Of a stretch of DNA of 64,000 bases, positions 913 through 50,220 are shown one piece after another. Within the stretch, counting starts at the first letter, position 1. Each line of letters starts with the position of its first letter. The stretch is from positions 288,001-352,000 of the forward strand of contig CAVPXI010000007.1 of NCBI GenBank assembly GCA_963709585.1. The letters are read 5' to 3'. The DNA is from Candidatus Dormiibacterota bacterium (GTDB lineage: Bacteria; Chloroflexota; Dormibacteria; Aeolococcales; Aeolococcaceae). The notes under the pieces were generated by a model. The model saw nothing but the letters and a program-made list of their open reading frames with translations. It made no database searches and was not told the origin of the DNA. The translations under genes and the position numbers were made by a program.

Positions 913-2962
913 TCAGCGATCTTCTCCGGGAACGTTGCAGTATGCAAGCACCTGAGCCGGAAACGTCTTGACGTCGATCGGCTTGACGATGACCCCAGCA
1001 AAGCCGGCGCGCGCAAATCGGTCCCGATCGATCGCCATCACTGATGCTGTCACCGCAACCACGGTCGTGCCGGTCGTAGCCGGATCGGCTCTCAGGTGTT
1101 CGAGCGCAGTGACGCCGCTCATGCGTGGGAGCTCGATGTCCATGAGAATGATGTCGGGAGCCGCCGTCGCCGCGATTTCGAGTCCATGTTGGGCGTCGGC
1201 TGCCTCGAGTGTGCGGAAGCCGTAAAGCCGCAGGAGGTCGCGGGTGAGCGTGAGATTCTTCTCATTGTCCTCGATTATGAGCACCAGCTGACCGTTCGCG
1301 CGGTGGCTCACAAGAGAGCTGGCGCCGTTTCCAGGGGCTCGTTCGATGATGGCTGGATCTACCGGGCCGACACGGTCATTAGAAACGCTAGAGGCGGTGG
1401 ATCGACGGGACATCGGCAAACTGAACGTGAAGGTGCTGCCATGCCCGACTGCGCTCTCCACGTTGAGTTGGCCGCCGTGCAACTCAACGAAACGCCGCGA
1501 CAATGCGAGTCCCAACCCCGTCCCCTCCTGCACGGTGAATCCGCCAACCTGTTCGAAGTTTTCGAATATCCGTGCCTGATCCGTGGGTGCGATGCCGACG
1601 CCATCGTCGCGTACGCTGATCACAATCGCATCGCCGAGGTAACGTGCGATGACGTCGACGTGCCCGCCTCGATCGGTGAAGTTCAGCGCGTTCGAGAGCA
1701 GGTTGAAGAGCACCTGCTTGAGGAGTCGCTCGTCTGCCTCGACCAGGCCAACATTCGGGTCCACGTCGAGCCGCAGCGCGATGCCCTGCCGGGTGGCTCG
1801 CTCGCGCAAGAGTTCAGTCGCATTCTGCAGCATCTCATCCAGAGCGAAGCGGCTCAGCTGCAGCTGCATGCGCCCCGCCTCGATCTTTGACAGATCGAGG
1901 ACATCGTTGATGAGCGTCAACAGATGCCGAACTCGACGTCTGGATGGCAGTCACATACTGCGTCTGCTTCTCATTGAGATCGCCGACCATCTGCTCATGC
2001 AGAAGATCGGAGAAGCCGATCACGGCGTTGAGCGGCGTCCGCAGCTCGTGGGACATGTTCGCCAGGAAGTCCGTCTTGTGCTTGCTTGCCGCCTCAACCT
2101 CCTGATACAGGCGCCCCAGCTCGTCGTTCATGCGGTTGAGGTTTGCCGCCAGCTCACCCAGCTCGTCGCGATTCGGCACATCGACGTGCCCCGAGAAGTC
2201 GCCGGCGGCGATCGCCGCCAGTTTCGCATTCACCTTCCGGATTGGCCCGAGGAGCATCCTGGAGAGGATGAACGCGAGAAGTACGGCAAGCACTGCGCTC
2301 GCGGCGGCAACGCCGATGAACAGGTGCTGGGAGCCGAGATATGAGGCAGTGTTCTGCTCGGGTAGGTCCGTTGATAACTCTTGAGTATTGACGACCAGTT
2401 TGTCGGCGTCAGCGGCCAGGATATTGTTGTAATCCATGTCTGGGAGGTTGTTGTCGTACGTAGCGTTCAGGTCACCCCACTCGAGCGCCGCCATGTCCTT
2501 GGAGATCGCGCCATATTTCGAGTGGATATCAGTGAGGAGGTTCAATTCGTTGGAGGGGGGCGTGAAACCGAGCGCGTCGAGTTCGGTCTTGGGCTCCATT
2601 GACTCGAGTGTTGAGGCGATCTCGCCGTCATACTCCGCGAGTTGAGGGAGCGAAGCGCTTTCACTCGATGCTCCACAATTTCCGTTGAGGAAACACTCAA
2701 CAACGAGCGCGCTCCGGTGCTGCAACTCGACGCCGAGGTGCACGCTGTCGTCCAGGAGCTGCTGATATGCCGCCAGGCGTTGGGGCAATTGACTGAGCGT
2801 TCCGGCGCGGGTGTTCGACTGACTCAGGACGCCCAGACCCAACGCGCCAACCGTTACCAACAGGGCCACGATAACCGCAAAGGCAAACAGAAGCTTGCGT
2901 TGCAAGGAGGTGGAAATACGCGCGATGGCGCGTACCAGCAAGTTGTCAGCGGGCGTGGCCAC
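913..2962 (-). CDS. Hybrid sensor histidine kinase/response regulator (HAMP-HisKA-HATPase-REC), split by a +1 frameshift at 1930-1931
   Basis: Two TM segments, HAMP (NRDELGELAANLNRM), H-box ANMSHELRTPLN, N/G boxes (NLLSNA, DDGVGI, GTGLGL) and REC (IIEDN, LMDIELP). Removing one base gives ...QTSSRHLLTLINDVLDLSKIEAG. Confidence 0.9.
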
Positions 2963-3025
2963 AACTCCGCCGGCATCCTCTCACGGACGGCCTTCTCTGG
3001 GGAATGGGCAACGGGTTGCTTGCGC

Positions 3026-4906: not shown

Positions 4907-5031
4907 TCATCAGCCATCACCTCACCTGTCACCCCGTGATGCGCTATCACAGAGTCCGATTCCCGCGCCGTGCCCCGTCTCGACCGTTCATTGCCTGTGA
5001 CGACTGAGCACGGCGCGGGCCGCGATGTGCG

Positions 5032-7375: not shown

Positions 7376-7419
7376 GTCCGGAGGCGCGGACTCGAACCGC
7401 GGGCCCCTGGTCCCCCAGA
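7376..7419 (-). other. tRNA-Pro(GGG) 3'-half remnant (att-site-like)
   Basis: Minus strand reads CTGGGGG (loop) ACCAG GGGCC CGCGG-TTCGAGT-CCGCG CCTCCGG A. T-arm intact; no D-arm or 5' half upstream. Confidence 0.65.
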
Positions 7420-7445
7420 TTTTAGAGTGCAACCTTCGGTGATTG

Positions 7446-8057: not shown

Positions 8058-8128
8058 TTCGGTTCTCCCGTCGTTGGTGGTAATCGAGTCACTACTGATG
8101 TAGGGGCGCGACGCGTCCTACATTTGTT

Positions 8129-31228: not shown

Positions 31229-34200
31229 TCACGCCGCCCCTCGTCGGGTCGACGACGGGCACGCGCGCCAATAGGCGCACCCCCAACAGGGCGCCTCAGG
31301 CGGCGCCGCTCGCTCCGCACTCACCAAAGTCGTTAGCAGCTCTTCAACTCCGACCCAGCTATCGTCACCACCGCGATGCACCGCGCCGGTCCGCATCTCC
31401 ATAAGCATCGCCCCCGCGTCGAGACCCAACGCTTCCCGTGTCGCACGCTTGTAGATGGCGAGCTGACGTCCGTACACGGTCAGCGCCTCGGCGCCAAGCG
31501 AGCGGTTTGTTTTGTAGTCGACGACCCAGGCCCGACCTTCGGCGTCGTTGCACAAACGATCGATGAATCCGCGCACCAAAACGGGCCGACCGCCCACATC
31601 GACCGCGAGGTTGACCTCTTGCTCCGTTGCGATGGTCCGCATTCCCGCGACCTCAGTACCGAGGTAGCGCTCGAGCATTCGCTCTGCAGTCGCAGACCAC
31701 ACGGTTACGGCACGCTCGGCTCCGACACTCAGGGTCGCGAGCTCGTTCCAAAGTTCGCACAGGCGCGGGAGGCCGCCAATACCATCTTCGGGCCCGGGCT
31801 GGCGGAACCGTTCGAGGACAGCATGCACGAGGGTACCGAGATCAGCCGCACCGATTGAACTCGCGATCGCAGGCTCGCTCTTGGGCGAGAGGTCATCCGG
31901 AGGCGCCGGCAGGCGCCATTCGAACATATATCTGTAGCGCAATCCGCACTGCGCAAGGACTTCGAGTTGGGAGAAGGACACTACCAACCGTTCCGTCGGT
32001 TCGGCCCCTCGGTCGCGCGCCAGGGCGCCGGCACCTTGCGGTAGAGGAATCGCGGCCAACTCCCCCGCGTTCACGGTGGGCGCAACCGTTGCTGGACTCA
32101 CTGCACTCGCGGCTTCCGTATCCATCAGGGTTCCGCATCCACCATCGCGCATGAAGAGCGCAAGGGTACGGAAGTGGTCGTCGGCCGGATCCCGCCGCGC
32201 CCGGCCGTTCCCGTCCAACTCAGAGAAGACCGACTCCCAGTCCGGCTCTTTCTTTCGTGTCGCCGACACGAACAATTGCCGCTCCGCTCGAGTGATCGCG
32301 ACGTACACAAGTCGGCGCAACTCGGCTCGGTCCACATCCTTCGGGAGCTCGCCCGCTCTCGCGGCGAGAAAATGGCCGTGCTTCAGTGTCGGATTCCTCG
32401 TGTCACCGAGATCCTTGATGATCAGCCCCATCTCATCGTCGAAGAAGAGCCAACCCCTGTGCTGGATGGTCGGAGGCTTGACGTGCGCCAGGAACACGAC
32501 GGGAAACTCAAGCCCCTTTGCCGCATGTACGGTCATGAAGCGCACAGCATCAGATCCGGAGACATCCGCTTCGGGGACGTCGATCTCGTGTTCGTCGTGC
32601 AGGTTGACGTAGCGGATGAACTCATCTAGGCCAGTGAACGCCTGTGACGCCTCGAAGTCGCCGGCCATCCGATAGAGCTTGCGTAGGTTGCCGACCCTTC
32701 GCGGCGCCTCCGCCGCCTCGCTCCCGGCAAGCGCGGCATATCCTGTCTCATCCAGTACCGCCTGCACCAAATCGCCGACCGACACTCCGGCCCGTCGCGA
32801 TGCTAAGCCTCGAACTAGGTCCAGCGCGGTTGTCACGCGCTCGGCGGTGCCGGCGTCACCCAGCTCCGTGAACCCTCCTTTCTCCGCCCGGATGACCCGA
32901 TCCCACCTGTAACGCAGCTCCAGTTCGTCACCCTCTGCACTGCGAAGGAGACGGTGCAACTGCCCGTCGCTCACCCGAGCCAACGGACCCTGAAGGACGC
33001 GAACCAGCGCCATGTCGTTGAGCGGGTTGTCGACCAAGGCCAGATAGGCCATCACGTCCTTGATCTCCTCGCGATCGAAGAACCCCTGACCGCCCGAGGT
33101 GACGTAGGGAACCCCGTGCTTGCGCAGCTCCTGCTCAAACGCGATGGGGGGTCGCGCCATGCGAGTGAGGAGTGCGATCTCTTGCCAGCGTGTGCCCTCA
33201 CCGTGCACGCGCAGAATCTGTCCCGCCACGAACCGCGCCTCGTCCTCGGGAGTGTCGGCGCGGTAGAGGGATACAGACCGCACATCGCCGCCGCCAGCAT
33301 CGGCCACCAGGTCGGGCTCATTCGCAAACTGACCGTCCTTCCGGATCAGATTTGTCGCCACATCCAGGATCGGTTGTGCCGATCGGTAGTTCGTCAGCAA
33401 GAGCCGCTCATCGCCGGGGAAGTCGAGAAGGTTGCGGATCTGTGCGTCGCGCCACCCATAGATGCTCTGCTTGGGATCGCCGACGACGGAGACATTTGCA
33501 AATCCGTCCTGCGCGAGCAGCTCGAGGACGTCGCGCTGGATCCGGCTTGTGTCCTGGAACTCGTCCACGATGATGTACTGGAACCGCTCGCGGACACGGT
33601 GCCGCCACGCAGCGTTGTCTCGCAGCGCATCACGGAGACGCAGCAGGATACCGTCGAAGTCGAGCATCCTCCACGCGGCGAGCCGCCGCTCGTATTCGTG
33701 GTAGGTCGCGCAGATGAGGCGCGCCACTTCCTCCTCCGCGAGCCGTTCGTTCCCCTCATCCGGTAGGACATCGACGCCGGCCGTGTCGTGCCAGTACACC
33801 TCAGCGCAGGTTGTGCACTGAGTGGCAAGGGTATCGGGTGCGATCCCCCGCCCTTTCATGCGCTGGATGAAGCCGAACGCCTCCGACGACACCTTCATCG
33901 CTACTTCGGTGCTGAGGACACGCAGGTCGAGGATCCCGGCCTCGGGAATCTCCCCGTTGCGCAGCGATGTGAGCACCTGGTCCACGAGGAGACGCTCTTC
34001 CAGCGGGTCGATGACCCTCGTATCCCGGTCGAAACCAATCTCGTAGCAGTCATCGCGCAGCAGGCGCACGCAGAGTCCGTGAAAGGTACCAACCCAAGCT
34101 GCGTCCATCGACGCACGATCCGCAACGAGGCCACCTGCAACCAGCCGATCGGTCACTCGACCGCGCAGGTCCGCCGCTGCCCGGTTGGTGAAAGTCACAG

Positions 34201-34360
34201 CAACGATGCGGCTGGGATCGAGGCCCCGCTCCGAGACCAGATACGCGAAGCGCTCCACCATCGTGAGCGTCTTGCCCGTGCCGGCTCCCGCGACAATCTT
34301 CTCCGCCTGAGTCGGGTCTGCTGTTGCCGCGGCCCGCTGCAGGTCGTTGATTTCAGTCAT
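31229..34360 (-). CDS. UvrD/REP helicase + RecB-like PD-(D/E)XK nuclease (AdnB/AddA-like)
   Basis: AGAGTGKT, VDEFQD, VGDPKQSIYGWR, NYRS, TVHAAKGLEF, YVAITRA; C-terminal RGFIDRL, VVDYKT, QLAIY, CxxCxxxxxC. Confidence 0.92.
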   Translation of the reverse strand: MTEINDLQRAAATADPTQAEKIVAGAGTGKTLTMVERFAYLVSERGLDPSRIVAVTFTNRAAADLRGRVTDRLVAGGLVADRASMDAAWVGTFHGLCVRLLRDDCYEIGFDRDTRVIDPLEERLLVDQVLTSLRNGEIPEAGILDLRVLSTEVAMKVSSEAFGFIQRMKGRGIAPDTLATQCTTCAEVYWHDTAGVDVLPDEGNERLAEEEVARLICATYHEYERRLAAWRMLDFDGILLRLRDALRDNAAWRHRVRERFQYIIVDEFQDTSRIQRDVLELLAQDGFANVSVVGDPKQSIYGWRDAQIRNLLDFPGDERLLLTNYRSAQPILDVATNLIRKDGQFANEPDLVADAGGGDVRSVSLYRADTPEDEARFVAGQILRVHGEGTRWQEIALLTRMARPPIAFEQELRKHGVPYVTSGGQGFFDREEIKDVMAYLALVDNPLNDMALVRVLQGPLARVSDGQLHRLLRSAEGDELELRYRWDRVIRAEKGGFTELGDAGTAERVTTALDLVRGLASRRAGVSVGDLVQAVLDETGYAALAGSEAAEAPRRVGNLRKLYRMAGDFEASQAFTGLDEFIRYVNLHDEHEIDVPEADVSGSDAVRFMTVHAAKGLEFPVVFLAHVKPPTIQHRGWLFFDDEMGLIIKDLGDTRNPTLKHGHFLAARAGELPKDVDRAELRRLVYVAITRAERQLFVSATRKKEPDWESVFSELDGNGRARRDPADDHFRTLALFMRDGGCGTLMDTEAASAVSPATVAPTVNAGELAAIPLPQGAGALARDRGAEPTERLVVSFSQLEVLAQCGLRYRYMFEWRLPAPPDDLSPKSEPAIASSIGAADLGTLVHAVLERFRQPGPEDGIGGLPRLCELWNELATLSVGAERAVTVWSATAERMLERYLGTEVAGMRTIATEQEVNLAVDVGGRPVLVRGFIDRLCNDAEGRAWVVDYKTNRSLGAEALTVYGRQLAIYKRATREALGLDAGAMLMEMRTGAVHRGGDDSWVGVEELLTTLVSAERAAPPEAPCWGCAYWRACPSSTRRGAA

Positions 34361-37300
34361 TCGGCCTCGTACGCCTCAGGTTCCTCGATGCGTCCAGGAC
34401 ATACCCAGGCGTAGTCGCACCCTTTGCCCCAAGCTGCGAGGCACGTATACCCGTCGTGGCGAGGGCGCGGCGCGAAATCTCCCGCGTGGATCTCTTCCAG
34501 CGTCGTGAGGATCCTCCCGCGGGCTTCTTCAAGCTGATCGTCGTTCAAATGGAGCGGCCCATTCTTGGGCGTCTCACCGTCGTCGGCAATGATCCGCGTC
34601 TTGCGGATCTGACCCCCCTTCATCAGGTTCGACGGATACCAGAGTCCGACGACATGGGGATCGACGGCGGGCACACCATCCACTTGACCGTCGCGGGAGC
34701 CGAAGAAGTAGATCAGCAACTGGAAGTCATGGGGGACGTCGCTCGTGATGCCGAGGTCGTCGCCCAGTTCACCGGTAGTCTTGCCGTTCTTGCCCGTCTT
34801 GTAGTCGATGATCTCGTGGCCACCTTCGTCAAGGACGATGATCCGGTCGATGTAGCCGCGGATCGTGACGTCTCGCAGCGGATGCCAGGTGATTCGTGCC
34901 TCGGTGGCCGCCGTGAGCGGCAACTCCTGCCCGTCAATTTCTGACCTGTAATAGTTGGCGAAGAGGCGGCGGAGCGAGCCCTTTTCGACACGGCGATCGA
35001 GCTCTCCGTCGACGGTGCGGAGGTGTGCCTCGATCGCCGCGTCACAGCACTCGGCATAGAACGTTTCGGCAAGCGCGGCGTCGTGGCGCCACCGCCGTTC
35101 GTTCTCCGGAGCGTGGAATCGCTCGGGCGCCGCGTGAAATGCGCTGCCTCGAGCCGCCGCGACCCCGGACTCGGTGCGCAGTCCGAGTGTCTTGCTGTAG
35201 TAGTACTGGCGAGGACAGGCGAGGAACTTGCTGACGCTCGATGAGCTGTCGTACAACTCACTGGTGAAGACGACCGGCTCTGACCACGCTTCCCAGCCGC
35301 TGAAGGCCGCTACATCGCGCTCGTCCTGCGCGTTGCGGCCGCTGCCAAGTGCCGGGTCGCGCTGTAGCTCTGTGTACTCGCCAAGTGGAGCGTCGCCCGC
35401 TAGTGGCTCTAGGAATGCGCTTGGCGCTCCGATCTCTTCCTTCTCATAAGTATCCGCCCACGACAGAAAGAGCATGTCTTGGGCTCGCGTGGACGCAACG
35501 TATCCGAGGCGCGCCTCTTCGCGCAGGAACTCCTCGTCGGTGGCGGGCCACGGAGGTGCGAAATCCACGAGCGTCTTCTCTAGCCACTGCTGCTCGTGCT
35601 TCTCCAGGAGTGGGGTCCGGGCGCGAGCCACGACGGGAAAGTGCTGCGATGCCATCGTCGGCATGAACACGACAGGAAACTCGAGTCCTTTACTGGCGTG
35701 AGCGGTGAGGATGCGAACGACACCCTGCTCGGGCTGGTCGGCAGCCGTAAGCTCGTCGATGTACTCGGGAAGGAGTTGCTCGAGGGCGGTGACGGTCTCG
35801 GCGAGTGAGGGTGGATGCTCGCTGAGCAGCGTCTGAAACTCGACGTAGTCGCCCACTGCTCGCAGCAACATCCGAAGCGGTACAAGGAGCTCGTCGCGCC
35901 GTGAGTCGGACGTAGCCGGTGACATCAGCAGGCGCACCACGCCGAGTTCGTCGAGGACCCTCTGCAGCAGTACATTGATGGCGACCTGACCGGCGCTCGA
36001 CCGCAATCGTGCCCATCGCCAAGTAAACCCATGGATGGCGTCGCGTCCATCGTCGCTCAGGAGATCGAAGAACCCTGCGGTTCGGCGCTTGGTTTCGTTC
36101 GGCTCGCGGGAACTCCACTCGAGGGCGTCGGCCGCGGCTCTCTCCCGCTCGAGGTCAGTGCGGTCCTCTGGAGAGAGCGGCGGTTCCGTGTTGCTCCACG
36201 GCAGCGGCCAGCGACTGGGATCTGCATCGCGGAGGAGGAAGCAGGTGTGCTTCAAGACTGTCAAGAGTGACGTGGTGCGCAGCGCTTCCGTCGCCGCACG
36301 CTGGCGGCGCTGCGCCTCCGCGAGCAGCCGGTGAGCGTCGGCAGCCGGAACACCAGCAAAGGGCGACTCCACCACGCGCATCAGGAAAGTGTCGTCATCG
36401 GGATGAGCGAGCGCGCCTAGGGCGTGCACCGCGAATCGAATAACGTCGGACGACGCGAAGTTGGGAGACGCGCCCACCTCGTGCGGGATACCAGCAGCAC
36501 GGAGCGCTTCTTCGAACTGACGGCCATGGCGGCGAACGCTGCGCAGGACGATGGCAATGTCACCGGCAGCGTAGCGCGGGCCGGGGGCGTGGCCGCTGGC
36601 AATGAGCTCCGCGATCTGGCGGACTACCGCCGTGGCCTCGTCGGTCGCATTCTGCTCGTGCTCGCGATGCAGCACCGGAACATCGGCATTGCCGCGGTTT
36701 GGGGTGAGCCCTGCGGCGCTAAGTCCATAGCGGTCGAGGAGACGATCCGAAGCCCGGAGAATGGAACCGTACGATCGGTAGTTCTGGCGCAGCTCCACAC
36801 GCGTGCCACCGAACTGCCACTTCTCATCAAGGAAGGCAGGCAGCGTCCCCCGGAACGAGTAGATGGCCTGGTTCGGATCACCCACCCACAGCAAGTCTGG
36901 GGTGCGGGTGATGGTGCTCCACCAACTGCGCGATGAGTTTGACCTGAGCGGCGTCCACGTCCTGATACTCGTCGACGATGACGTGCTGGAACTTCATCGA
37001 CAGCTCCTCTCGCAGTGCGTCGTCCCGCTCCAGATGGAGCTGACACTGGGCGATGACATCGCGAAAGTCCCAGAGGTGGCGGCTGTCCTGTTCGGCCCAG
37101 TACGCCCTGTAGATTGCGGCCAGATCCCGCATCTTCGCGTTGTTGGTAACGCGGGAGTACCCACCGAAGTCATCCGACCGAACAAGATTCTGCTTGAGAA
37201 CGCCGATGAACCAAAGGGCGTCCTGAACAAGTGCTTCGCTCGTCTGCAGCGGGCCAAGGATCTCAAGACCGCTCATCTGCGTAAGCACCCGGCGCATCAG

Positions 37301-37666
37301 CACCTTCTCCTCGAAACTGTTCATAAGGCGGAAGGGGACGATCCCGTGGAGGTAGCCGTGGGTGGTGAGGATACGGGTGGCGAAGGAGTGGAATGTGCTG
37401 ACCCACGACTCGTCATATGAGGTGTTGTGTAGGCCATCGATACGGCGCTTAAGATCGCTGGCCGCGTTATTGGCGAACGTCAATAGGAGGACTTGGCTCG
37501 GGCGCAGTCCGACCTCGTCGAGCAGGCGCAGATACATGGCTACAACCGTGGTCGTCTTCCCAGTTCCAGGCCCAGCGACTAGGCGGAGCGGCCCCTCGCC
37601 CATAAGGTTGAGGGCGGTCCGCTGCTCCGCGTTGAGATGTAGCCGGTCGGCTACAGGAACCGTCAT
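34357..37666 (-). CDS. UvrD/REP helicase + RecB-like nuclease (AdnA-like); +1 frameshift in the C run at 36885-36887
   Basis: AGPGTGKT, VDEYQD, (AV)VGDPNQAIYSFRG, NYRS, TAHASKGLEF, YVASTRA, CPRQY, RGYIDRI, IIDYKTG, QLLIY. Stop overlaps the next start (ATGA). Confidence 0.88.
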
Positions 37667-38436
37667 GTCCAGATTGTGGACGCCGGGCAGTGACGACGCC
37701 GTATCGAACCCATGAAGCCTCTGGGCACGGCCTTCAAGCCAGCACTTTCGACCGCGGCCGGGGATGGCCCACGCGGCATCGATCGACGCCACGCTGCCGC
37801 TTCATCTTCAGATCTGGGAACGTGTTGACATCCGTAAGCTAGGAGTCCGGCCAGACCCGCGTGTGTGCCGTCCCCTGAGCTTTACGTAGGTGCAGCGAGA
37901 GTGATCGATCGCTGCTATCAGCAACGCACGCATCTAGCGCGCGCGGCGGGCGGCGGCGACGGGTGTCCAGGGCGGTCTTGCTTCGTAAGGTCGATGCGCG
38001 CGCCTTGACATCACGGAACTAATTGCTACTGCCAAATCATCCAACGTCTTATAAGTCCCACATTTCAGCGCTGTCAAATTCACAAGCACCGGCTGATTCC
38101 ACAGGTCACGCTTTGGCCATCGACTGATCACGAGGTGATGAGCGAGTAGATCCTGCGCCAGATGGCGTGGCTCCTTCGACCGCAAGAGTTCTCGGCCGGT
38201 GGATCTGAAGGAAAGGGCATGAACGCTCCCGATGCGGTCGCAACGAGTCGACCAAACGGTGTCTTAGTCACCAAGAAGATGGTCTCTCTTCGAGATCGCC
38301 CGGCGCCTGGAGGCGGGCGACGTGCCTACACCCACCGGCCGAGCGAGATGGTTCCCGAGCTCCGTTGGCAAATTGCCAAGGCAGGCACACGATGATCACC
38401 CAAAACGAAGTTGACACGCGCGCTCCGCGCACGCGC

Positions 38437-41194
38437 TCACTCGATGCTCACCGCCTCGGCGAGCCCGAGTTCCTGCAGGATCTGACGCACCTCCGACACC
38501 AAACTCTCGCTGGCAGCAGCGTTGACCGTAACGGAGAATTCCACCCCAACTTTGAGATCAGAGCCGGATCGCAGCTTAGGAAGGATTTTCGTGCCGAGGC
38601 GGTTCCACATCTCCGGGGGAATCGTGCCAACGAGCCGGAAGCTCTTGGTCTGCTCGCCAGGGACCGGCTCAAATCCTGGTAGGGGGCCGGGGTCGCCGGC
38701 AGGTTCAGGACTTGGCTCGGCAGTGGGAGCAGACTCCGGCACGAAAACGCCACCCGCTTTTATTGCTTCTGCCGCCTCCCGTCGAAGTAGAAACACATCG
38801 GCGTCGAAGGCGACCTCGTCGGCCGGGAGGATCTCGTTGAACCACACGCGCTCGTAGCTACCGTCTGGCGTCTTGCCGGAGGCAAAGCCAAAGTCGCCAT
38901 GCTCGACGAAGTCGGTTATCTTGCCCCGAAGAGTTGTGTCGGGGTCGACCAGTCGTGTCAGTGAGCCGTTGAGAAAGCTCTGACGCAAGCTAGCAACAGG
39001 CCACGCCCCGGACGTCTTCAGCGCGGGTGGCCAGTTGCGCTCGATGTACCCTGCGCCGACCGATTCGTTGAGAAGCGCTCCCGACCGTAGCGCATCGATC
39101 ACCCGGCCGCAGAGCGTTCCTCCACTCGATGAATGGCCGGCACCCAAATCAATCACTTTGAGGCCATCAGGCTCTTGGCTATCCGCGACGACAGCGAATC
39201 GATAATCACCCCAGACCTCGTCCTTCGCGACCCCTTCCGCGTCCTTCACCTTCGTCTGCAGTTCGGCACGGTCGCTCTTCTCGAACTCGCCGCCTAGCGT
39301 ACCCTCGGTAACCTCGCGCGCCACCCGCCTCCACGCCAGCATCAGTTCAATCTTGTCGCGCAGTTCGCGGCCGGGCTTCTTGAGGCACCAGACAAGCGCA
39401 CCGGGGTAAAGGCGCGGAGATTTACCGCGCTGACGGGTCCACTCTGACAACTGTTCGCGTAGTGTCTCGCCGCCTGGCCACTCCATCTCAGGATCGGCCA
39501 CGACGAGCGTAAGCCTGGGAGTGTCCGGAATCTCCGTGGCTTCACTCGGGAATGGGATAACCGGGATGCTCGCCCCGCGCCGGAATTCCTCCTCGACGAG
39601 CTTCCGAACGCTTGGCTTCACCTCCGTCGCATCGTCGAGCGAGGCGCGCCGGTCGCTAACGACCTTCTTCATTGTTGGCTGATAGCCGATTCGAAATCCA
39701 TCCGAACCCGCCTTCCGAATGAAGTACGAGCGGTCCTCGAGCGCGAACGCGGCGTTGTCGATGGTCGTCGTGTCCAGCTCCGGCTCGCCGAGTGCGAACC
39801 GCAGCTCCGGGAGGTGCGCCACCTTGTCCGTCTGCCCGCCCGACGAACTCGAAAAGGATTGCGGTGCCAACGCGACGATGGATATCCCGCAAGGGGCCAC
39901 TGGTGTCGGCGTCGAGTGCTCTACTGTGCGCCTGCTCGCCGGCGATGTCCGTGTCGATCGCCGCGACAAGCCTGGACTCGCCGAGCTGTCCCAGCACCAC
40001 GCTGCGGAACCCGGGCTCCGCGAGCGGTGCCGAGCCGAGGGTGATGAGCGGCTCGTTGCGCGCCTTGGTGAATGCATCCTGGGCAGCGATCGAAATCCAC
40101 TGGGCGAGCATCGCCAGCGTGCCCCGCGTCTGCTGATATTGAGGAAGCGCCTGCCACTTGCGCTGGAAGACCGATAGTGTCGCCGGATGAAATGGGTAGC
40201 AAGCTTCGAACCGCCCCTGCAGGAACTCGCGCGCCTTCGCCTCTGTCGCTGCCGAGTCAACCGCGGTCCATTCAGGCGGTAGCTGCGCGCGACGCTCGAA
40301 ACACCAGTCTCCGAATGCCCTGGCGACGTTCCTCCGGATCTTCTCGCTTCCGATGTCCTGGAAGAGCCGACGCCGCACGACCTCGCTGATCTCTGTTTCA
40401 TCGTTCACGATCAGATCCTTGGCCACCCGACGGACCACCTTCGAGATTCGCTCCTGCCATTCCTGATCCCAGTCGGTCAACTCGACCTGGCTTCGCGGCA
40501 GGCTGATCACGCACGCGCCGTGTGAAGTACCGGTCGTGGCCACGGTCAGGTTTTGGATGAAAGAGAGGAACGACTCGGCACTACCGCGGTGGCGGTTCAG
40601 GTAATTGAGGACCTCGTCAAAGAGCAGCAGGACTGGAGCTCCGGCAGCCTGAAACACCTGCGCTATCGCATCGGTGCCAGGGGCGGTGGTCTTCGCTGCC
40701 GCGCCGAGCGCCTCGACGCCCTTGTCGCCTGCTAGCTGGCGGGCAACGTCGATCCAGGGCGTTTCGCGCCCGTCTTGCGGGTCCCAGGCATTGCCCACGA
40801 ACACCGCGACCTTCGCCCGAGGAATGGACGCGACGCCAGATTCACTTACTAGATCCGCGACCCCGTCGTAGCGGCGGGCTGCGTCTCCGTTCGTCGCAAG
40901 GTGGTATAGCGTGGTCAGCGTGTGAGTTTTGCCGCCGCCGAATTGGGTGATCAGAGTCAACACTGGCGAGGTGTTCTCGGTCTTGCCCGATAGACGGCGT
41001 AGCACCATGCCGGAGTGCTCACGTAGCGCCCGCGTGAAGCACGTGCGAGCGAAGAACTGCGCAGGATCGCGGTAGTCCTGCGGCGCTGTTCCGGCGACGA
41101 CCTGCTCGAGGGCAATGGCGAACTCATCCGGGTTGAAGGATCGACCTTCGCGAACCTCCCTGCGAGGGGTCGCTACCTTGTACCACGGTTCCAT
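38437..41194 (-). CDS. DUF499-family AAA+ ATPase; +1 frameshift at 39846-39847
   Basis: MEPWYKVATPRREV..G.SF.PDEFA, Y.DP.QFF, TQFGGGKTH, LLFDE, YPFHP, QQTRGTL. Corrected junction TAILFESSGGQ. Confidence 0.9.
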
Positions 41195-41203
41195 TCCAAC
41201 CTC

Positions 41204-42179
41204 CTAAGGCCTCTTCATACGAGCGAACAAGCTCGATAGCCGGTTCCTTCAGACGCACAAGGTTTGCATACGCGAGCGGCTCGAAACCGCGATCCGCCGC
41301 ATACATCCGGTAACGAACGCCGTCGGTGACAATGACGTCGCGGACAACGCCGAGCATCGCTACATACCCTTTGGCTTGTTCGAGCGCCCCTTCCACCCCG
41401 GCCCCCAGACGCTTTGCTTCGATCACAAGGTGGCAATTCTCCGGGGAACGTGGCAATGCGCTGAATACTGCCACGTCGATGTGTCTCCATTGCACCGCGA
41501 TGTTCTCCGGCGGCCAGCCGAAAGCGCGTAGAGCCGGCACGACGAAATGGGCGATCAGTTCGTCTTCGCTCGGTTGATCACCGAACCGTTGGCGGTCTTG
41601 GAGAAGGGGAACGAGGTCTGCTGCTTGAGCGACGATCCCTTGCAACATACTCGGGACCTCGTCGAGGAGCGCCTGTTCGACGGGGACGTCGGGAAGAGCT
41701 CCCATCTGCCACTGCGTCGGCGGAGACTTGACAAACCGCTGGGCGAAGTCAACGGCTTCGCTGTTCCATACCCGCGCGCATCGCGTCGGATTGGCTCCGA
41801 AGACAGGTCCAGAAAATATGTAATCCGTGGGCAGGTGATACCACCGTACGCGCCGAGCATGCTGAAGATCCCATCCGTTCACATCGTCGAAGGCATTGTG
41901 GTACTTATACTCGCTCGCCACAATGCCGACCGCCCCTATGGTCGCCTGGCCGGTTCGGAGCAGGAATATGTTCCCCGCTTGGACCTCACTCGCGAAGCGC
42001 CGCACGAATCCACCTTCGAACTCTTCGTCGTCGCGGTCCGGCGACCACGGACCAGCATCTCCTGGGCCAACGAGAGCGACCCCGTACCGGAGGAAGACAT
42101 CGGCATACGAGCGCGAAATCGGACCGCCCGATATCTGCCACACGCTTTGCGATGGATCGCTTGCCTGAGTTGCGGTCAT
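41204..42179 (-). CDS. PD-(D/E)XK nuclease (HsdR_N-like) with a putative PUA/EVE-like N-terminal domain
   Basis: SEDELIAHFVVP.L..FGW, IDVAVF, LVIEAK, ALEQAKGY, IVTDG. Removing one base at 41229-41230 gives LFARMKRP* just before the RBS of the next gene. Confidence 0.75.
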
Positions 42180-45100
42180 CGGGGCAAGGCGAGCAGCATT
42201 GCGTCGAGCAGGCGCTTCTCTTCACTAGTCTTTGGATAGAGTGCGGAGAGTGCGTTGGCGAGACGCATAAAATCGGAACCACGTTCCTGCTCCGCTTTCA
42301 GCAGCGCGCGCAGCGCGTTCGAGCGGCCGCCGGCTTGGAGCAGCATCGCTGCATGGACGCGGTCGAGCGTGGTTGCGTCCAGAGCGCCCGCCAAACGGTC
42401 ATCCGAAACGTCGACGTCAGCACGCTTACCGCTGACACGCCCGCGTCCGCGCACCGTCGGGGCCGCATTACTATCAGGAAAGAGCAGACCCTGTAGCGGG
42501 TTGCCACCGAGCGTCGCCTCGTGCTCAAGCCGCGTGGCAACGGCATGCGCACCATCGTCGCCGAAGAGTTGTTTGGCCCGCTCGCCGATTGGGAGCAGCC
42601 TCACAACGCCCTGCTTCGTTTCTATCACCCGACCTTCCCACTTAGGCAGATCAATGCCGAGCGGCTGCGCGAACCGGCGGACGACGTCAAAGACGAGCGT
42701 GAATCCTTTGACTTTGCTGGCCGACGCATCCTCATCATCCTCATCGGACGACGCCTCGGCCTGATCGTCGTCGCTCGTCCCGTTGACTGTCTCGCTGTTC
42801 GTGCTCTGAAGTGTCCAGAGAAAGAGCGCCGTGAGCCGCGCGTCCTCCTCTACGGCACCGGCAGCTCCATTGCGCGCCTTCGCCTCGGCAGTGCCGAGCA
42901 CTTGCTCGAGAGCGCTCCTCCCGACTACTTCCCAGACCTTCTCCAGATATTCGGCCAGATCCACCTCACGGCCTTCGGCCGTTTCAACCCTGGCGTGACG
43001 ACTGAAGATCTCTAAGGCAGGGCCTATGCATGCAAACACGAGATCAGCGCCCCGCACGCCTTCGTGCTGCAAACGCTCCATCCAGTTTCCGACGCGCTTT
43101 GGAAGCTCTCGGAGGATGTCGGCCCAGTCACCTATGACCGCATCGTCGGGACGAGGACGGCAAACGAGGTGAACGCTGGTAGCGAGCGCCGCCGAGTTTT
43201 GAGCCCTCAGTCTACCGGGCCTTTCCGTCGCAATTGGCCACGACGCAGTGATCGTCCACCCGCCGCGGATCATTCCTGACAGGAGCGCCTCCCACCCTTC
43301 CGTGGTTTTATGCGCAAAGACAACGGCACCGATTCCGTCGTCCCGTAAAACACGCCGACCTTCCGCGAATGCCCGCCGAACCCCATCCTCGAAAAAGGCT
43401 TGGTCCTTTTGCGGGTACCGTTCGGGATCCCAGTGTGCCATTTCGCACAGCTCGCGGTCTTTTGGAGTAAGCGGGTTCGTCGGATCGAGGCGGTCTCGAA
43501 GAAGGGGATTTTCGGGCATGAGCCGCTTGAGCCAGACGAAGAAGTAATCCGATAAGTCAGCATACGGAACCGCAAAGTAGTACGGCGGGTCGGTAAACCA
43601 AACGGCCGCCGCCTCGTCGGGAAGCGGATGCTCAGCAGCGTCAGCGGATTCGACAGTCCCAGCTGCAGAACCGGGCCATGCCTCGATAACCCGAGCAACC
43701 CAGTCGATGGCCCCGTCAAGGTTGCCCGACGAATCAGTCCACGGACTTGCCTCAGCAAAGTCCCACACCATAGGTAGCGCCTGTCGTCCAAAGGTGTGTG
43801 CGACGAACTCACCAGTTTGCGCCCATACAACGCCCGAGCTCCCGTAGTCAGCCGCGCGGCCGACGACCATCGCCATCGCGTCTCGGAGTGCTCCGTCTTC
43901 TATTGCCGGCCGCTGGCGCGCGATGCGTACAAGAGTTACCATCGCGAGCTTCTGCCTAGCCGAGAACATGTCTCCCCAGCGGCGCACCCCATAGAGCGGC
44001 ACATTAAACGTGCCGCTCATGAGTGGCAGGATCTCGTCCGGGACGGGGCTTAGCCCTTGCTTTCCACCATCCTCCCATTCACGAAGGACCGCGGAGAGCA
44101 TGACCTGCGACCTTCGGACCGCCTCGTAGTCCGCGGTCGTCGCAATTCGATAGCTGCATCCGCGTTCTCCGGGACGCCGCGTCACCACCGCGATAATCCG
44201 CGCTCCGCCTGATCGTTTCGATCCCACGCCATCGAACACGACGTCGGCACCCCCGTTCTGGGCGATGAGTTGGACGCGGACTCGCTCCGGTGCAAGCACA
44301 GCTCCGCACGTAGGGCACATTGCTTTCGCACGCGTTGTTGTACCGGACGGCACGTCCTTGTTCGATGTCGGCTCGAACACTTCCAGTTCAAGACGCGGCG
44401 TTCCCGTCGAAGGCCGTACGACGTCGTATCGTAGAGCTCGCTTGCGACCGGCTTTCGTACAAAGCCAGAAAGAGCGGACGAGCGGTATCTCGGTGCCGCA
44501 ATTCGGGGACTCGCATCTCACGGTTCGCGCCCACAAATATGCCGTGGGTCTCCGGCCGTCGGGATCATTCGGGTAAAGGTCAGCTAGCGCAGTCTCCGCC
44601 TCAGCCCTAATCTCGGCCCCTACTCGCCGCAGATCCTGCGCAAGCGTGACACCGTGCCGCGGAATGTCTTGCAGCATGACCTTCAAGATCAGGCAAGCGA
44701 CGGGATTCAGATCGCTCGCGAACGCGTCGCAACCAAGGCGAAGGGCCTCCAGTGGAATGGACCCGCCGCCAGCAAACGGATCGGCGATCAAGGGCGGCTC
44801 CTGTCCGTGTGCCGCCCTCACCAGCGCTCGGCTCACCTGCAGATACCTGCTGTTTGCGGCAAGATCCCAGTCCGCGAAATCACCAATGAACTTCAGCAAA
44901 GCTTTCCGTAAGTCCTCGTCGCGCGTCCCAGGGTTGTAGCCGACTTCTTCGCGCAACAACTTACGGGCTTGTTCTTTGAATTCCGGTGGGCACAGCGCAT
45001 CGCACGGATCGGGCCAAAGCAATGCGAGGAGAACAGCTCGAACTCGAAGCGAGCGGACGCCTGGCCCACCATATGTGCAATGTGCTCGGGTGTCCGTGAC

Positions 45101-45188
45101 GGATCGACTTCTCAGTCGCTGCGTGTCGCGAGACCTCGGCGATCGGAAAGTCGACCTCGGCTAGGCGCTTGCAATCTTTGGGGATCAC
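42176..45188 (-). CDS. DUF1156-domain adenine-specific DNA methyltransferase with Zn ribbon; +1 frameshift at 45041-45042
   Basis: [64 protein letters not shown]. Confidence 0.92.
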
Positions 45189-48100
45189 GACGCGCCATCG
45201 TAGGGAGGCGCGTCCTCGCGGACTTCCATTGGTGTGGTCATTGCGTCGACCGACAGGTAGTAGTGGGCTACCTTGCTTACCTCGTGCCAGTCAAGACGCG
45301 CGGGATCGCGGATCGGCTCTTGGAGCCGCGGCGTACCGTTGCAATCAGTGACGACGTAGAGCCAGAAGCAGTCAGGACGGTCCTCCGCGACGCGGCGCTC
45401 GTTGGGGGTCAGTAGGATCGTGCCCGTCACCGCGCCAAGCCCCTTGACCTCGATCAGCCTGAGGTCTCCTGAGGCGAGGTCGAGACTGGTGACGTCATAT
45501 CCCAAATTCTTCTCGGACACGTCGGCGACTTGGCGGCCTTGTCCACGTTCATGCTCCATCACAACGCGCATCGCGGTTGCCTCGGTTTCGAAGTTCGGCC
45601 GGAGACGCCTGACTTCAGGCGTATCACCGTCGGGATGCGGCAGGACCAGGACACTAGCGAACCGTTCTACCGATTGCAGCGTCAGCGCCCGTTGGCGGTC
45701 GAGGTCTGTGCGTCGGCGATCGCGACGGGCGAGTAGTTCTGAATGTCGCGCTTCCGCTTGTGCAAGTCGCCCCTCGGCGCCAGCCAACTTTTGCTCGACG
45801 TCGGACCCCGCACGCCCGATCTCGTCATCGGCCCGTTGGAGCAACTCCGTGAGCGAGAGCTCGACGTGTGCACTGACCCGACCAACCTCGGCCACGCGAT
45901 CTTTGCGCATCTCTTCCAGAAACGGGGCGAGTGCACTGTCGTGCAGCCAACCCGTGGCCTGGGGGAGAGACGCAACGGCAGGCAGTTCCGCCGGCGGATC
46001 AGCAGGCGAGAAATTGCCAAGCAGGCCGGGTTCCTGGAGACGAGGGTCGTCACCGTCGCTGATTTCCACGGCAAAAAGCCGCTCGTGTACGACCTGCCCG
46101 AGCCCATCGACGACACGCGCGCGATAGAAGTCGATGCGCGCCGGGCGCTCATGCTGAAGCGAGTAAAACGTCGCCCCCTGGCCGAGAACGTCGAGAGCCT
46201 GCAGGTGAGTGTGACGTCGGATGGCCTCGAACAGTGGATGGCCTGGGGTGACCCATTCCAGCTTTTCGGTCTCAGCTGTGTCGCGGTCGGTCGAGCAGCG
46301 GGGATAACGGTCCGCAAGGGGCGGCAGCTTCCAGTCTGCTTCTTTCTCGTAGCGCCTCAGAACCGGCGGCGTCCGAGCCGGTTCGAACGTGTGCGGAAGA
46401 TTCGGCACGTCCTTCAGCGCCAGCGGTACGAATCCGGAAGCCTCCCGGATGAATCGCGCGATGGTCTCAGGGACGACACGCCGCTCCTGCGCCTGCGCTC
46501 GTCGCTCGATCAACATCTCCAGGTTCAGCTTCTTACTTGCCAGCCCCTCCAAAGCGTTCTGGCAGATGGCGCGAAACTGCTTTTCATCGACGTCGCGGAG
46601 CAGCCGTTCCTCGAGGTCGGCATCGCCCAGCTTGCCCGCATAGTAGTCGCGCAAGACGCGCTCCACGTGAGCCGCTGGCAGAACTTCGCCGACAACGTTG
46701 AACACAGAATCGTCGTCGAGCGCATCCCGAATTTCTTGCAACTTTTCATGGAGGCGCTGCAGCACACGTCCCTCGATAGTGTTGGTCGCGACGAAATTGA
46801 AGATGAGGCAGTCCTTGCGCTGTCCATAGCGGTGGATACGCCCCATGCGCTGCTCGAGCCGGTTCGGATTCCAGGGGATATCGTAGTTGAACAAGATGTT
46901 GCACACCTGGAGGTTGATGCCCTCGCCCGCAGCTTCCGTGGCGACGAGAATCTGGATCTCACCTTCCCGAAACTGTTGCTCAGCGTGCAGGCGCGTGCCG
47001 GGCTCATCACGCGAACCCGACTTCATCCCACCGTGAATGCACCCGACGCGGAAGCCCCAGGACTCCAGCCGCTCCATGAGGTAGTCCAGAGTGTCTTTGA
47101 ACTCCGTGAAGAGGAGCAGGCGCTGATCCGAGTTATCAAAGAACCCTTCCTCGTGAAGCAGCTTCTTGAGTTTCGATAGCTTGGCCTCCGTTCCCGAGTT
47201 CCTCCACACCTTGTGCCTGAACTGCGAGACGCCGGAGCTCTTCAGCTTCGTGGCGTACCTGATCGGCGCTCCCTGCCAGCGTGATGGCCTCGAGCATCGC
47301 TTCCAACCGCTCGCGCTCGCTGTCCTCCATCTCCTCCAGCTCCTCCGGATCGGGGAGATCAGGAGGAGCCTGGCGAGCGAGATCTTGCGCATGCTTGAGA
47401 CCCTCTTCCAAGCGCCGCGCGCGGTTCTCCAGCGAGCGCCGCATAGCGCGGGTACTGGAGGCGAGCCGACGCTGGTAGAGAGACATCAAGAATCCGATCG
47501 CGCGCGCTCGCGGATTCTCACCTTCGGCAGCAGCCCGAGCGCTTTCACGCTTCACGAACCGCGTCACGTCGCGGTAGAGGTCGAACTCGGCACCGTCGAT
47601 GGCGAAGTCCACCGTGTGCGGGATGCGCTTGGTAAAGATTGGCTTGGCCGCCCACGTGCCATCTTCTCGCCGCTCCGGAAAGTAGACCATCGCCTCCTTG
47701 GTCCGCCGCAGGTAGAACGGCGCCCGGCGTTGGTCCATCGCCTGCCGGATCGACTTCACATCGGCAAACGCATCGGCGTCGAGGAGTTGCAGGAATAGGC
47801 TGAAGTTCTCCGGATCGCCCTTGTGAGGCGTCGCGGTGAGCAGCAGCATGTGATCGGACGTGTCGCGCAGCAGCTCGCCCAACCGGTAGCGCAGGCTCTT
47901 GTGCAACTCATCGGAGGCCGACATTCGGTGCGCCTCGTCGACGATCACCAGGTCCCACTGAACCTGTCGAAGCCCTGGAAGGATGTCGGCGCGCTTCGCC
48001 AAGTCGAGCGACGTGATCACCCGCTTGCGATCCAACCACTGGTTCACGCCGAACTGTTCGCGGACGTCTTGCCCCCGCATCACCAAGAACTTTGTGTCGA

Positions 48101-48620
48101 ACTTTTCTTTGAGTTCGCGCTGCCATTGGAAAGCGAGATTTGCAGGGCAGACGATCAGGATGCGTTCGGCGAGTCCCCGCAGCTCAAGCTCGCGAATCAG
48201 GAGCCCCGACATAATCGTTTTGCCGGCGCCCGCGTCGTCGGCAAGGAGAAAGCGCACCCGCGGCAGCTTGAGCAGGTAGTCGTAGATCGCCTCGAGCTGG
48301 TGCGGCAGTGGGTCGACACGAGAGATTGACAGCCCGAAGTAGGGGTCGAACTCGTACGCGATGCCGAGCGCGTACGCCTGAAGGCCCAAACGGAGAAGAC
48401 GGCCATCGCCGGCGTATGAGTGCTGCGAATCAAGGATCGTCAGGCTGGCCAGATCCTCAGCAGTTAGGGTGACCCTACGGAACCGCTCCGACCGTGTTCC
48501 CGCCAACCCGACTACCCAGCTCGAAGCGCTATTCGCCTCTACGGTTTCAACGCGCATTGGCTCGTTGAATAACGCGCCAGTCAGAATCTGGCCCGTCTCG
48601 ATCGTGCTGGAGCCGGTCAC
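45185..48620 (-). CDS. SNF2-family helicase with C-terminal DUF3883 (NOV-C) nuclease-like domain; +1 frameshift at 47199-47200
   Basis: [60 protein letters not shown]; C-terminal GYDVTS..LIEVKG..LTPNE. Confidence 0.92.
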
Positions 48621-48838
48621 GACAGACTGCGCTCAATCAACACGCGACCAGCCAGCGGCCTTCGGCCTCCAGGTCGGCTGCGCGCTGTGCTCTCGGGAAG
48701 GTCTTGTCGACGGCGGCGATACGCGGCCTTCCGGCACGCAGGCGAGCAGAAACGCCGCGGCCGTCCAGTGGACCCATGTTCGATCTCCCTTCCACAACTT
48801 GCGCAACCATCACCGACACGTAGTGCCGCTCCAGCCAT
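48617..48838 (-). CDS. Small zinc-finger protein (CxxCG...GRPRRFCSxxCR)
   Basis: Four-Cys motif; GTGA overlap with the helicase start. Confidence 0.7.
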   Translation of the reverse strand: MAGAALRVGDGCASCGREIEHGSTGRPRRFCSPACRKAAYRRRRQDLPESTARSRPGGRRPLAGRVLIERSLS

Positions 48839-48968
48839 GCGGAGCGGACCCTACCACCTTTCGTCCCGCGCTACAACGCGCCGCAACGGAGCTACACGTT
48901 GACCCAGGCCCGGCCGAATCCCGAAGGCGCTGACCGAAGCTCTCCCCTTCACTTCAATTACCGCCGAG

Positions 48969-50220
48969 TCACGCGGCGTGCAACTCTTGAGCCAGCCGCT
49001 CGAGTTCGACTCGCCTGTCCAGCTCCTGCGAGCCCGGCGGCCCGATCGATATCCCGCGAGATCACGTCGTCGACGGCTCCCGCGGAAAACGCCTGAACCT
49101 CGGCGGAACGGGCGAGCAGGTAGTGCCAAAAGTTCGAGCCAGTTGCCCGGCTCGTTGGAGTTCGCCGCGTACTTTCACCTACCTGCTGATCCGCCAGAAG
49201 TACGTCCAGCGGATGCACCCCGCGCGCGAAAAGGCCGGCGCAGAAAGCGCACTCGCAATAGCGATCTCGGTACGCAGCCGCGTCCAGATCACTGCCACAG
49301 CGGTGGGCATCGTCGAAACGCATGACGCCACGCACCCCCGGTACGTAGGTCCGACAGGACCGGGCGAAGCCGCCCAACTCTTGCGCAGGCTCGCCGTTGT
49401 CAACCCAGCCTAGATGATGAGCTACGCCCGCTACCCCAACGAGTGATAGCGCGGCCGCCGTGTACCCGAGCTGGGTTGGTATGACGGGGACACCACGCGT
49501 CGCAAGAGTCCGAATCGCGACCACCAAAGCGGCGAACGCGTCGTGCCTGCTGACCAACCATTCCTCGGTCACCCCAGGAGTCCACAGGAGGTAGCCTCGA
49601 GCGCTGGCTTCCGGCACTGAACGGAGCAGATCTCCGACTTGGTCAAGGGTGAGCCTCTCCTTTGGAATCACCACCATGGCCAGCACCGGCTCGCCTGCCG
49701 CCTCGGCCGCGGCATCGACCAGAAGGCGGTTCACCTCGTCCTCCCTCGTCGACAGGGCCACAAGCGCGGGCGCGATGAATCGGCTCGGGCGAAGCTCACG
49801 AGACAACATGGGATCGAGCATGTCGAGTTGACAGCTCATCTCAAGTCGATCCTTCTGATACCGGACGATGTTCGCGGCAAGACGCTCCCACTCCGCGACC
49901 GTCTTCACCGTTTCGAGCAAATGTCCTTCCTCGAGGTAAAGGTTCGTCCCCTCGGAGTAGTGCTTGGCGAGCCGACGGTAGTTCCGCTTCGTCTCTCCCT
50001 TGTCGTTGCGCCACCACTCCGGCACCTGGAAGCGCCAAAGCACGGGATCGACCATGTAGCCGTAGCCAGTGCCGCGCAGATGGGCCGATGTGCTCTCCGG
50101 GCTGTTCTCCAACTGATTCGCGTTGACGATGAGTTCATCGCACATGCCGCCCTGGAGATACGTGAGGTCGTCAGATGTGCGCAACCTCATGTAGTGGACG
50201 AGCTTGTTGTCCTCTGTCAT
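48969..50220 (-). CDS. Uncharacterised TIM-barrel-like protein with a TGT/DpdA-type Zn site (CxCxxC...H)
   Basis: LIVNAN, YMVDP, FIAP, YCECAFC, NFWHYL..R..E. ATGA-coupled to the upstream gene. Corrected C-terminus RLERLAQELHAA* (extra base at 49005-49006). Confidence 0.65.

Follow-up and report, generated by a model that had tools for sequence, protein, structure and literature searches.

The stretch of DNA analysed here (the window, 64,000 nucleotides; G000:C7:288001-352000) belongs to G000, a metagenome-assembled genome (MAG) of the phylum Candidatus Dormibacterota that is assembled as 3.52 Mb in 24 contigs, with a G+C content of approximately 0.67. It carries the gene of a hybrid sensor kinase, a cluster of Hma (helicase-methylase-ATPase) genes, and a gene whose product displays the fold of tRNA-guanine transglycosylases (TGT), all of which are disturbed in the deposited sequence by single surplus bases. 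These extra bases are absent from the DNA of the organism, and the genes for the kinase, HmaA, HmaB, HmaC, the protein encoded between HmaB and HmaC and the TGT-fold protein are, almost certainly, intact. The surplus bases are systematic one-base insertions that arise when long reads become a consensus: at the near-palindrome CGA-S-TCG, the A:T pair of GA-C is usually doubled, generating CGA[A]CTCG, and less often the other A:T pair, generating CGAC[T]TCG. This kind of artefact is already known, and the frameshifts represent no biological feature; the Hma cluster is the place where the errors were spotted, and not their cause. The miscalls are probably due to a base modification at the site, conserved in this Candidatus Dormibacterota family.

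Surplus bases in the window and the short-read contigs

An earlier note, made from the letters of the window, had described five +1 frameshifts that share one context, GA(A)CTCG, and that break the kinase, DUF499 (HmaC), DUF1156 (HmaB) and SNF2 (HmaA) genes as well as, probably, the C-terminus of the TGT-like gene. The word GAACTCG or its complement is present in the window sequence at all five places, and reading in three frames reveals a +1 change at each, in agreement with this description. The site at 1929..1935 (+ strand, surplus A, context CGAACTCGA) breaks the kinase gene, which lies on the - strand; deletion of one A extends the open frame from 381 codons to 688, and the Pfam domains of the kinase fall on either side of the break: HAMP and HisKA are recognised in the first of its two pieces, HATPase_c and Response_reg in the second. 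The same site is flagged, as C7:289929, in the genome-wide frame scan described below, and the alignment with G137, a congener with a fragmented assembly, has a one-base gap at precisely this position, in GAG-T-TCG. Within HmaC, the word occurs at 39845..39851 (+ strand, surplus A, context CGAACTCGA), and the PADLOC profile continues over the break, matching positions 3-429 and then 472-816. A further copy at 45040..45046 (+ strand, surplus A, context CGAACTCGA) is located approximately 45 codons into HmaB, where the N-terminus of the DUF1156 protein can be read directly from the sequence as split over two frames (WWARRPLAS / SRAVLLALL). In HmaA, GAACTCG lies on the - strand at 47195..47201 (surplus A, context AGGAACTCGG), and here too the PADLOC profile continues over the break at 47192-47203, matching 7-467 and then 484-1131. 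In all four genes, profiles or frames run on past a single-base break, as had been claimed.

The remaining copy, on the - strand at 49001..49007 (surplus A, context CGAACTCGA), alters the final 11 codons of the TGT-fold gene. Since six homologues of this protein end in ...LERLAxELxAA, which is the other frame in the window, the last codons of the gene must also be shifted, and the same defect that had been suspected at this C-terminus is present. A sixth candidate had been placed at 41228-41235 as a similar surplus A; the surplus base is real, but the letter is a C at 41234 (+ strand, CAAGCT[C]G), so that its context differs from that of the other sites. It carries a 351-codon gene on into the start of HmaC; in its absence the frame ends in ...LFARMKRP* at 41204-41206, just ahead of a Shine-Dalgarno sequence and the ATG at 41194. 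As to the window as a whole, GAACTCG occurs 26 times versus an expected 14.1 +/- 3.8, a count reached in none of 100 shuffles, and GACTCG occurs 44 times versus 75.8 expected.

Logan contigs of four public runs (X1-X4) were placed on positions 34000-52000 of the window (18 kb). X1 and X2 are soil metagenomes from one study, and 34 of the 44 contigs of the former and 35 of the 47 of the latter are at least 99% like the window; loose ends of X1 contigs carry adapter-type letters, which we take to be the transposase adapter, a mark of a short-read library. The only indels listed within the 18 kb are five single missing letters, at 39846 (covered by X2 and X3), 41234 (X2, at a depth of 4.8), 45041 (X1), 47199 (X3 and X4) and 49005 (X1 and X2). 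All of the depth at each of these five island sites is without the extra base (seven contig observations, none of them with the base), and the X1 and X2 contigs that run over 49005 are otherwise free of differing letters. Short reads had been named in the earlier note as a check on the extra bases, and at all five island sites it is the intact reading that the Logan contigs support. The kinase site is located outside the placed stretch, and its case is carried by the gap in G137, the frame scan and the gain in open frame. Two points must be set against these results, namely that the depths of the placed contigs are low (2.8-10.8), and that 47199 is covered by the relatives X3 and X4 only (95-96% identical), with no same-strain contig.

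A recurrent insertion context in the genome and in its relatives

The whole genome was scanned by comparing codon phase, as given by the G+C-rich third position, in the 150 bases before and after each position; 737,567 positions with both sides clearly coding on one strand were kept, which makes approximately a fifth of the genome assessable. Phase changes of +1 and -1 were counted for each 7-mer, the +1 background being 1.9%, ordinary gene junctions included. GAACTCG is the top 7-mer for +1 changes, with shifts at 42 of its 286 assessable sites (of 1340 in total; p 2.8e-24 among 7678 words), and the genome-wide tabulation of shift contexts that had been suggested earlier thus reveals a strong enrichment over the 1.9% background. 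Of the possible one-base duplications of CGACTCG, just two are prominent, namely CGA[A]CTCG (the 8-mer CGAACTCG, shifting at 33 of 140 sites) and CGAC[T]TCG (CGACTTCG, 10 of 126), and 11 control motifs display no comparable shift rate. Words derived from GAATC/GATTC are not clearly enriched either (GAAATC 7/158, GAATTC 3/76, CGAATTCG 0/11). The flanks have a marked effect, in that approximately 15% of sites are converted when flanked by C and G (C..G) and at most 3% with most other flanks; the true error-prone site is therefore CGACTCG/CGAGTCG, of which approximately 19% of sites are affected. The statement that many GACTCG sites are intact holds as well, with 44 in the window and approximately 80% of CGACTCG sites genome-wide.

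The shifts have the character of insertions in an otherwise sound sequence. GAACTC is found in 71 of 494 insertion-type clusters versus 17 of 575 deletion-type clusters, and homopolymer runs of 3 to 7 show no error excess in the genome, so that the assembly is otherwise clean. When one A is taken out, the open frame becomes longer in 40 of 41 cases at shift sites and in 30 of 240 at non-shift sites. A single Pfam model spans the site in six of the 12 cases examined, as illustrated by G6PD_C (1-82/83-289) and CP_ATPgrasp_2 (1-100/101-374); the other models are the HsdR SWI2_SNF2 domain (type I), AA_permease_2, Epimerase and UvrA. If the rate holds beyond the assessable fifth, the 3.5 Mb assembly would contain some 250-300 false frameshifts. 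Within the window's genome, the insertion does not depend on contig orientation (17/57 forward, 16/83 reverse), and none of its k-mers is an outlier in strand asymmetry. A second error context, GTCAGGC, was considered and rejected, its flagged sites being ordinary gene junctions (ATGCCTGA overlaps). As a separate observation, at G000:C6:146308-150427 (L007) the frame of a lipoyl-E2 protein (2-oxoacid acyltransferase) runs into that of a 2-oxoglutarate dehydrogenase E1 at a GAACTCG; without the extra base the open frame has 1373 codons, corresponding to one fused gene or to two neighbours.

The signature was followed in relatives by counting, in 161 genomes of the order, the ratio R = N(CGAACTCG)/N(CGACTCG), with assemblies of 30 contigs or fewer considered as contiguous and contig number serving as a proxy for assembly type. 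In the window's genus (g1), the 22 contiguous assemblies have a median R of 0.59, 21 of them reaching at least 0.45 and the window's genome being the highest (0.77), and the 20 fragmented ones have a median of 0.34, with 19 at or below 0.41. The same contrast is seen in g7 (contiguous 0.48-0.58, fragmented median 0.35), g13 (contiguous median 0.60, fragmented 0.40), g12 (0.80 versus 0.37-0.52) and g20 (0.46 versus 0.27 and 0.37). The sister genus g3 displays no signature, the R of its three contiguous assemblies being 0.32-0.36 and the fragmented median 0.37. Among the fragmented genomes that set the baseline in g3 and g7 are some that carry an unpublished flag (G039, G044, G048, G056, G154; G064, G065, G074), and the contrasts in g1, g12 and g13 are independent of such genomes. 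Phase scans of 400 kb are in line with these ratios: GAACTCG again comes first in G092, of g12 (13/89, p 5e-8), and in the one-contig g3 genome G049 none of 42 GAACTC sites shifts. At locus L090 (481-662) of a contiguous MAG, the sequence CGAG[T]TCG stands where six relatives read (C/G)GAG-TCG.

An asymmetry between strands was also observed, CGACTCG being rarer than CGAGTCG on the + strand of contigs in 18 of 22 contiguous versus 11 of 20 fragmented g1 assemblies; G019 (321 versus 505) is one such case, and others include G021, G031, G012 and G004. No matching excess of CGAACTCG was found on that strand, which hints at another kind of consensus error here, one that depends on orientation and could be a substitution. 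G000 itself displays only a weak asymmetry (CGACTCG 392, CGAGTCG 453).

Could the insertions be real, as in decaying pseudogenes, through programmed +1 ribosomal frameshifting, or through a site-specific insertion process? The extra base does stand in the deposited assembly, and P0001, a 90% identical homologue of the TGT-fold protein from another public assembly, has the same shifted C-terminus. However, homologues and relatives read straight through, the fragmented congener assemblies lack the signature, and the short-read contigs are without the base at all five island sites, the result which also upholds the earlier judgement that an insertion process is the less likely explanation. Moreover, a fifth of CGACTCG sites are hit, including those in UvrA, G6PD and other housekeeping genes, and these can therefore not be real frameshifts. 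Real insertions are thus extremely improbable, and the reading of intact genes, with extra bases that are an error of sequencing or assembly tied to one context, already put forward in the earlier note, is borne out by the short-read contigs, the genome-wide scan, the gains in open frame and the continuity of Pfam domains.

DNA modification or k-mer bias as possible causes

The duplicated base pairs are exactly both adenine positions of GASTC, and the signature is limited to certain genera, with none in the three contiguous g3 assemblies; both observations support a modified site. The modification would most simply be N6-methyladenine on both adenines of GASTC, introduced by a chromosomal orphan beta-class N6/N4 methyltransferase. 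Errors of Oxford Nanopore sequencing have been described at GANTC and short palindromes in agrobacteria (PMC12710330), at GATC and GANTC in pathogens (PMC12392509), and at GCAGC/GCTGG in Listeria lineages (PMC10687267), and strand-specific mismatches have been reported at modified sites (PMC11610603). In the parts of these papers that we drew on, such errors resemble those observed here in that they fall on one short recurring motif, are lineage-specific, survive consensus, are absent from short reads, and lie mostly in coding sequence, where they distort gene calls. They differ in being substitutions, as opposed to the one-base insertions with a duplicated A:T pair found here, which on this account are a variation on a known theme. 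The present case also stands apart from these published examples in its motif, CGASTCG, in its organisms, which are uncultured Candidatus Dormibacterota MAGs, and in that the modification is presumed.

A number of observations weigh against a modification. The case for it is drawn from assembled contigs, and the modification-linked errors described in the consulted parts of the literature are substitutions and not insertions. A near-palindrome could be favoured even if no base were modified, given that an error reaches the consensus only when both strands are miscalled. Since no effect is seen at GAATC/GATTC contexts, any GANTC-like mark must be narrower than GANTC. Contig number is only a proxy for the sequencing technology used for the relatives, a contiguous congener, G016, is without the signature (R 0.35), and the clean state of the three g3 assemblies may simply be due to a different platform or to polishing. 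Finally, kin are not independent, and the match between methyltransferase and signature rests on few independent contrasts.

A rival explanation is an artefact that requires no modification, in which a basecaller or polisher miscounts the k-mer on both strands in any DNA, and where the clade pattern merely reflects which assemblies used that chemistry and software. This explanation appears somewhat unlikely, while deserving serious consideration. It is favoured by the fact that the signature tracks assembly contiguity, by the clean state of the contiguous congener G016, by the possible selection of a near-palindrome when both strands must err, and by the possibility that the platforms of the clean assemblies differ; the asymmetry of CGACTCG by contig orientation (18/22 contiguous versus 11/20 fragmented) also points to software, because biology is blind to the orientation of a contig. 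However, bias in any DNA is difficult to reconcile with three contiguous g3 assemblies that are clean, including a one-contig genome in which 0 of 42 GAACTC sites shift, or with the lack of a homopolymer error excess in the assembly. A consensus error of approximately 19% at a common 7-mer in unmodified DNA would also contradict the near-perfect modern nanopore assemblies reported, in whose published accounts, insofar as we drew on them, residual errors sit at methylated motifs (PMC12710330, PMC12392509, PMC10687267, PMC11610603).

If the site is indeed modified, a close known parallel is the alphaproteobacterial enzyme CcrM, which forms N6-methyladenine in GANTC: the sites described by GANTC include the core GASTC, and the duplicated pairs are exactly those whose adenines would be methylated by an enzyme specific for GANTC. 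Unlike in the CcrM system, the flanking C and G are required here, and the phylum is a different one. The earlier note had proposed a GANTC-like mark, and in the strict sense of CcrM this part of it fails. With the CcrM equivalog model NF050803, two PF01555 proteins score 73 and 77 bits versus a cut-off of 830; GcrA (PF07750) was found in none of the 161 genomes of the order, G000 being 88.8% complete and the control having matched in Caulobacter; and GAATC/GATTC contexts are unaffected. The classical CcrM/GANTC system was rejected on these three grounds.

Five candidate DNA methyltransferases were found in the genome, namely two orphan PF01555 enzymes, both of which sit among metabolic genes, a type I system, a C5 enzyme, and HmaB. 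The candidate beta-class N6/N4 enzymes align with CcrM (6pbd, E ~1e-17). Judged by sequence and distribution, the best-fitting candidate would be the 264-residue PF01555 enzyme (G000:C7:586185-586976), which has orthologues (57-94% identity) in the genera with the signature, while in g3, g14 and g9 only weak partial matches to it were found. We consider it possible, if tentatively so, that most genera of one family have retained an orphan enzyme of this type beside genes of core metabolism. The insertion at L090 mentioned above sits inside this conserved gene, and the gene is also split, near residue 86-90, in the contiguous assemblies G006, G008, G139 and G140 of the genus. The second PF01555 enzyme, of 395 residues (G000:C7:583009-584193), is present in g3 as well (48-58% identity). 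The C5 methyltransferase (C4:347709-348701) was rejected, since an enzyme present in a single one of 41 congeners cannot be the source of a clade-wide signature. As for the type I system, on contig C10 (PF02384), type I enzymes recognise bipartite sites, unlike the compact 7-mer observed here.

HmaB leads to a further alternative, also raised in the earlier note, in which the modification is real and its enzyme encoded on the island, either by HmaB, the DUF1156 methylase, or by the TGT-fold protein. PADLOC labels HmaB a 'DNA-adenine methylase', the protein encoded next to it shares the fold of tRNA-guanine transglycosylases, and the 90% identical P0001 ends in the same shifted C-terminus, all of which could be cited in its favour. 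The errors, however, are spread over the whole genome, and 21 of the 22 contiguous g1 assemblies carry the signature, as do assemblies of other genera. Among 36 congeners, HmaB was detected just once, as a paralogue of 37% identity, and the TGT-fold protein was found in none of five high-signature congeners. Given their rarity in congeners that carry the signature, the island enzymes are not the cause, and this part of the earlier proposal is very unlikely to be correct. A base modification with a chromosomal source, for which the 264-residue enzyme is the best-fitting candidate, remains the explanation that we consider probable.

The defence island and the meaning of the footprint

The Hma cluster extends over 38437-48620 on one strand, with HmaA, HmaB and HmaC all matched by PADLOC (E-values of 7e-91 and 1.5e-75 for the two HmaA pieces, 1.9e-85 for HmaB, and 3.4e-77 and 1.5e-16 for the HmaC pieces), and the G+C content of the region is below that of the rest of the genome. 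HmaA (45185..48620, - strand), an SNF2-type helicase with the Pfam domains SNF2-rel_dom, Helicase_C and NOV_C, is assembled as 47136-48620 and 45185-47392. HmaB (42176..45184, - strand), the DUF1156 DNA methyltransferase, is assembled as an open reading frame (ORF) at 42176-45022, its N-terminal codons lying in the other frame with a start that is not fixed; its match to the NCBIfam model DUF1156_antiphage is under the cut-off. HmaC (38437..41194, - strand), an AAA+ ATPase with the Pfam domain DUF499, is assembled as 39656-41194 and 38437-40401. The set and its arrangement in one same-strand cluster are those of the Hma candidate defence system of PADLOC, with the difference that a gene of an unknown family (41204..42179, - strand; assembled ORF 41124-42179), for which no Pfam, PADLOC or NCBIfam match was found, stands between HmaB and HmaC. 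The Hma region and its neighbours form a defence island. At a distance from it, the hybrid histidine kinase with its receiver domain (913..2962, - strand) appears in the assembly as a pair of ORFs that overlap (1835-2962 and 913-1920).

Adjoining the Hma genes is a module of three genes on the - strand (48969-51483), which encode a BrnT-like protein of 101 residues, a protein of 323-325 residues with a CopG-type N-terminus (64% identical between G000 and G041), and the TGT-fold protein of 416 residues; the same conserved module occurs in G041 (L096:8602-11111), there without Hma beside it. The TGT-fold gene (48969..50334, - strand; assembled ORF 48958-50334) has its true stop at 48969-48971 and belongs to a family of approximately 416 residues, for which 234 homologues were found, with C322, C324 and C327 invariant and H336 nearly so; CxCxxC...H is presumably the zinc motif of TGT enzymes. 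Profile searches against Pfam, PADLOC, NCBIfam and the PDB gave no match, and the Atlas returned unnamed clusters only. The predicted structure (pLDDT 88.5) was used in a fold search in which all 50 listed matches are tRNA-guanine transglycosylases (Z 20-21, rmsd 3.2-3.6 A, approximately 300 residues aligned); on this structural model, the earlier label 'TGT-like' appears appropriate at the level of the fold (Z 21). By the same model, the 416-residue protein could be an enzyme that exchanges DNA or RNA bases and is tied to a toxin-antitoxin pair. P0001 ends in ...ASRTPAAGSRITRRVIP, the shifted C-terminus, and the false frame is therefore already present in protein collections.

Beyond this module, the region 51181-58734 carries a YaaC-like gene (52347-53477), a reverse-transcriptase gene with a weak RVT_1 match (53897-55288) and a phage-type integrase gene (57796-58734), which suggests an integrated defence island with an end near 58.7 kb. 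On the other side of the Hma cluster, a second UvrD-type helicase gene, which includes a PD-(D/E)XK nuclease domain, is located upstream of a gene of similar type with 1043 residues (31229-34360), the two presumably resembling an AdnA/AdnB-type pair. The UvrD-type gene is split by a +1 shift at 36878-36894 (ORFs 36878-37792 and 34357-36894, - strand), with the break itself at 36884-36888, in a different context, where the window reads GTGGGTGGGTGATCC and the 85% identical congener G025 reads GTGGTGGGCGATCC, with an extra G/C in a run. No indel is listed at this break in the short-read contigs, whose coverage of the spot is unclear; it may be an error or a real frameshift. A 30-mer from loose contig ends at 36859 and 36894 was not found in the window or the genome, and these letters probably stem from another helicase gene.

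The immediate consequence of the artefact is that the Hma genes and the sensor kinase gene are no pseudogenes and neither, by extrapolation, are approximately 250-300 further genes of this MAG. Many contiguous public MAGs of the family contain the same kind of false frameshift, which lowers estimates of completeness and splits proteins in databases; such errors would be repaired by removing one A/T at each frame-breaking CGA[A]CTCG, in a motif-aware polish, or by polishing with short reads. Our literature search found no paper on DNA methylation in the phylum Candidatus Dormibacterota, and the main text of the Nanomotif preprint contains no GANTC, GASTC, GACTC, GAGTC or Dormi. The footprint described here may, in a reading that we offer with reserve, offer a first view of a conserved DNA methylation of housekeeping type in this uncultured phylum, in which an orphan enzyme would methylate both strands of CGASTCG or GASTC. 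If modification is the cause of the errors, they point to a motif that can be tested and to a candidate enzyme, in a phylum without a cultured member; and if the methylation is indeed of this housekeeping type, it would represent a CcrM-like mark that exists without CcrM or GcrA, and whose specificity and taxonomic range can be mapped through assembly errors.

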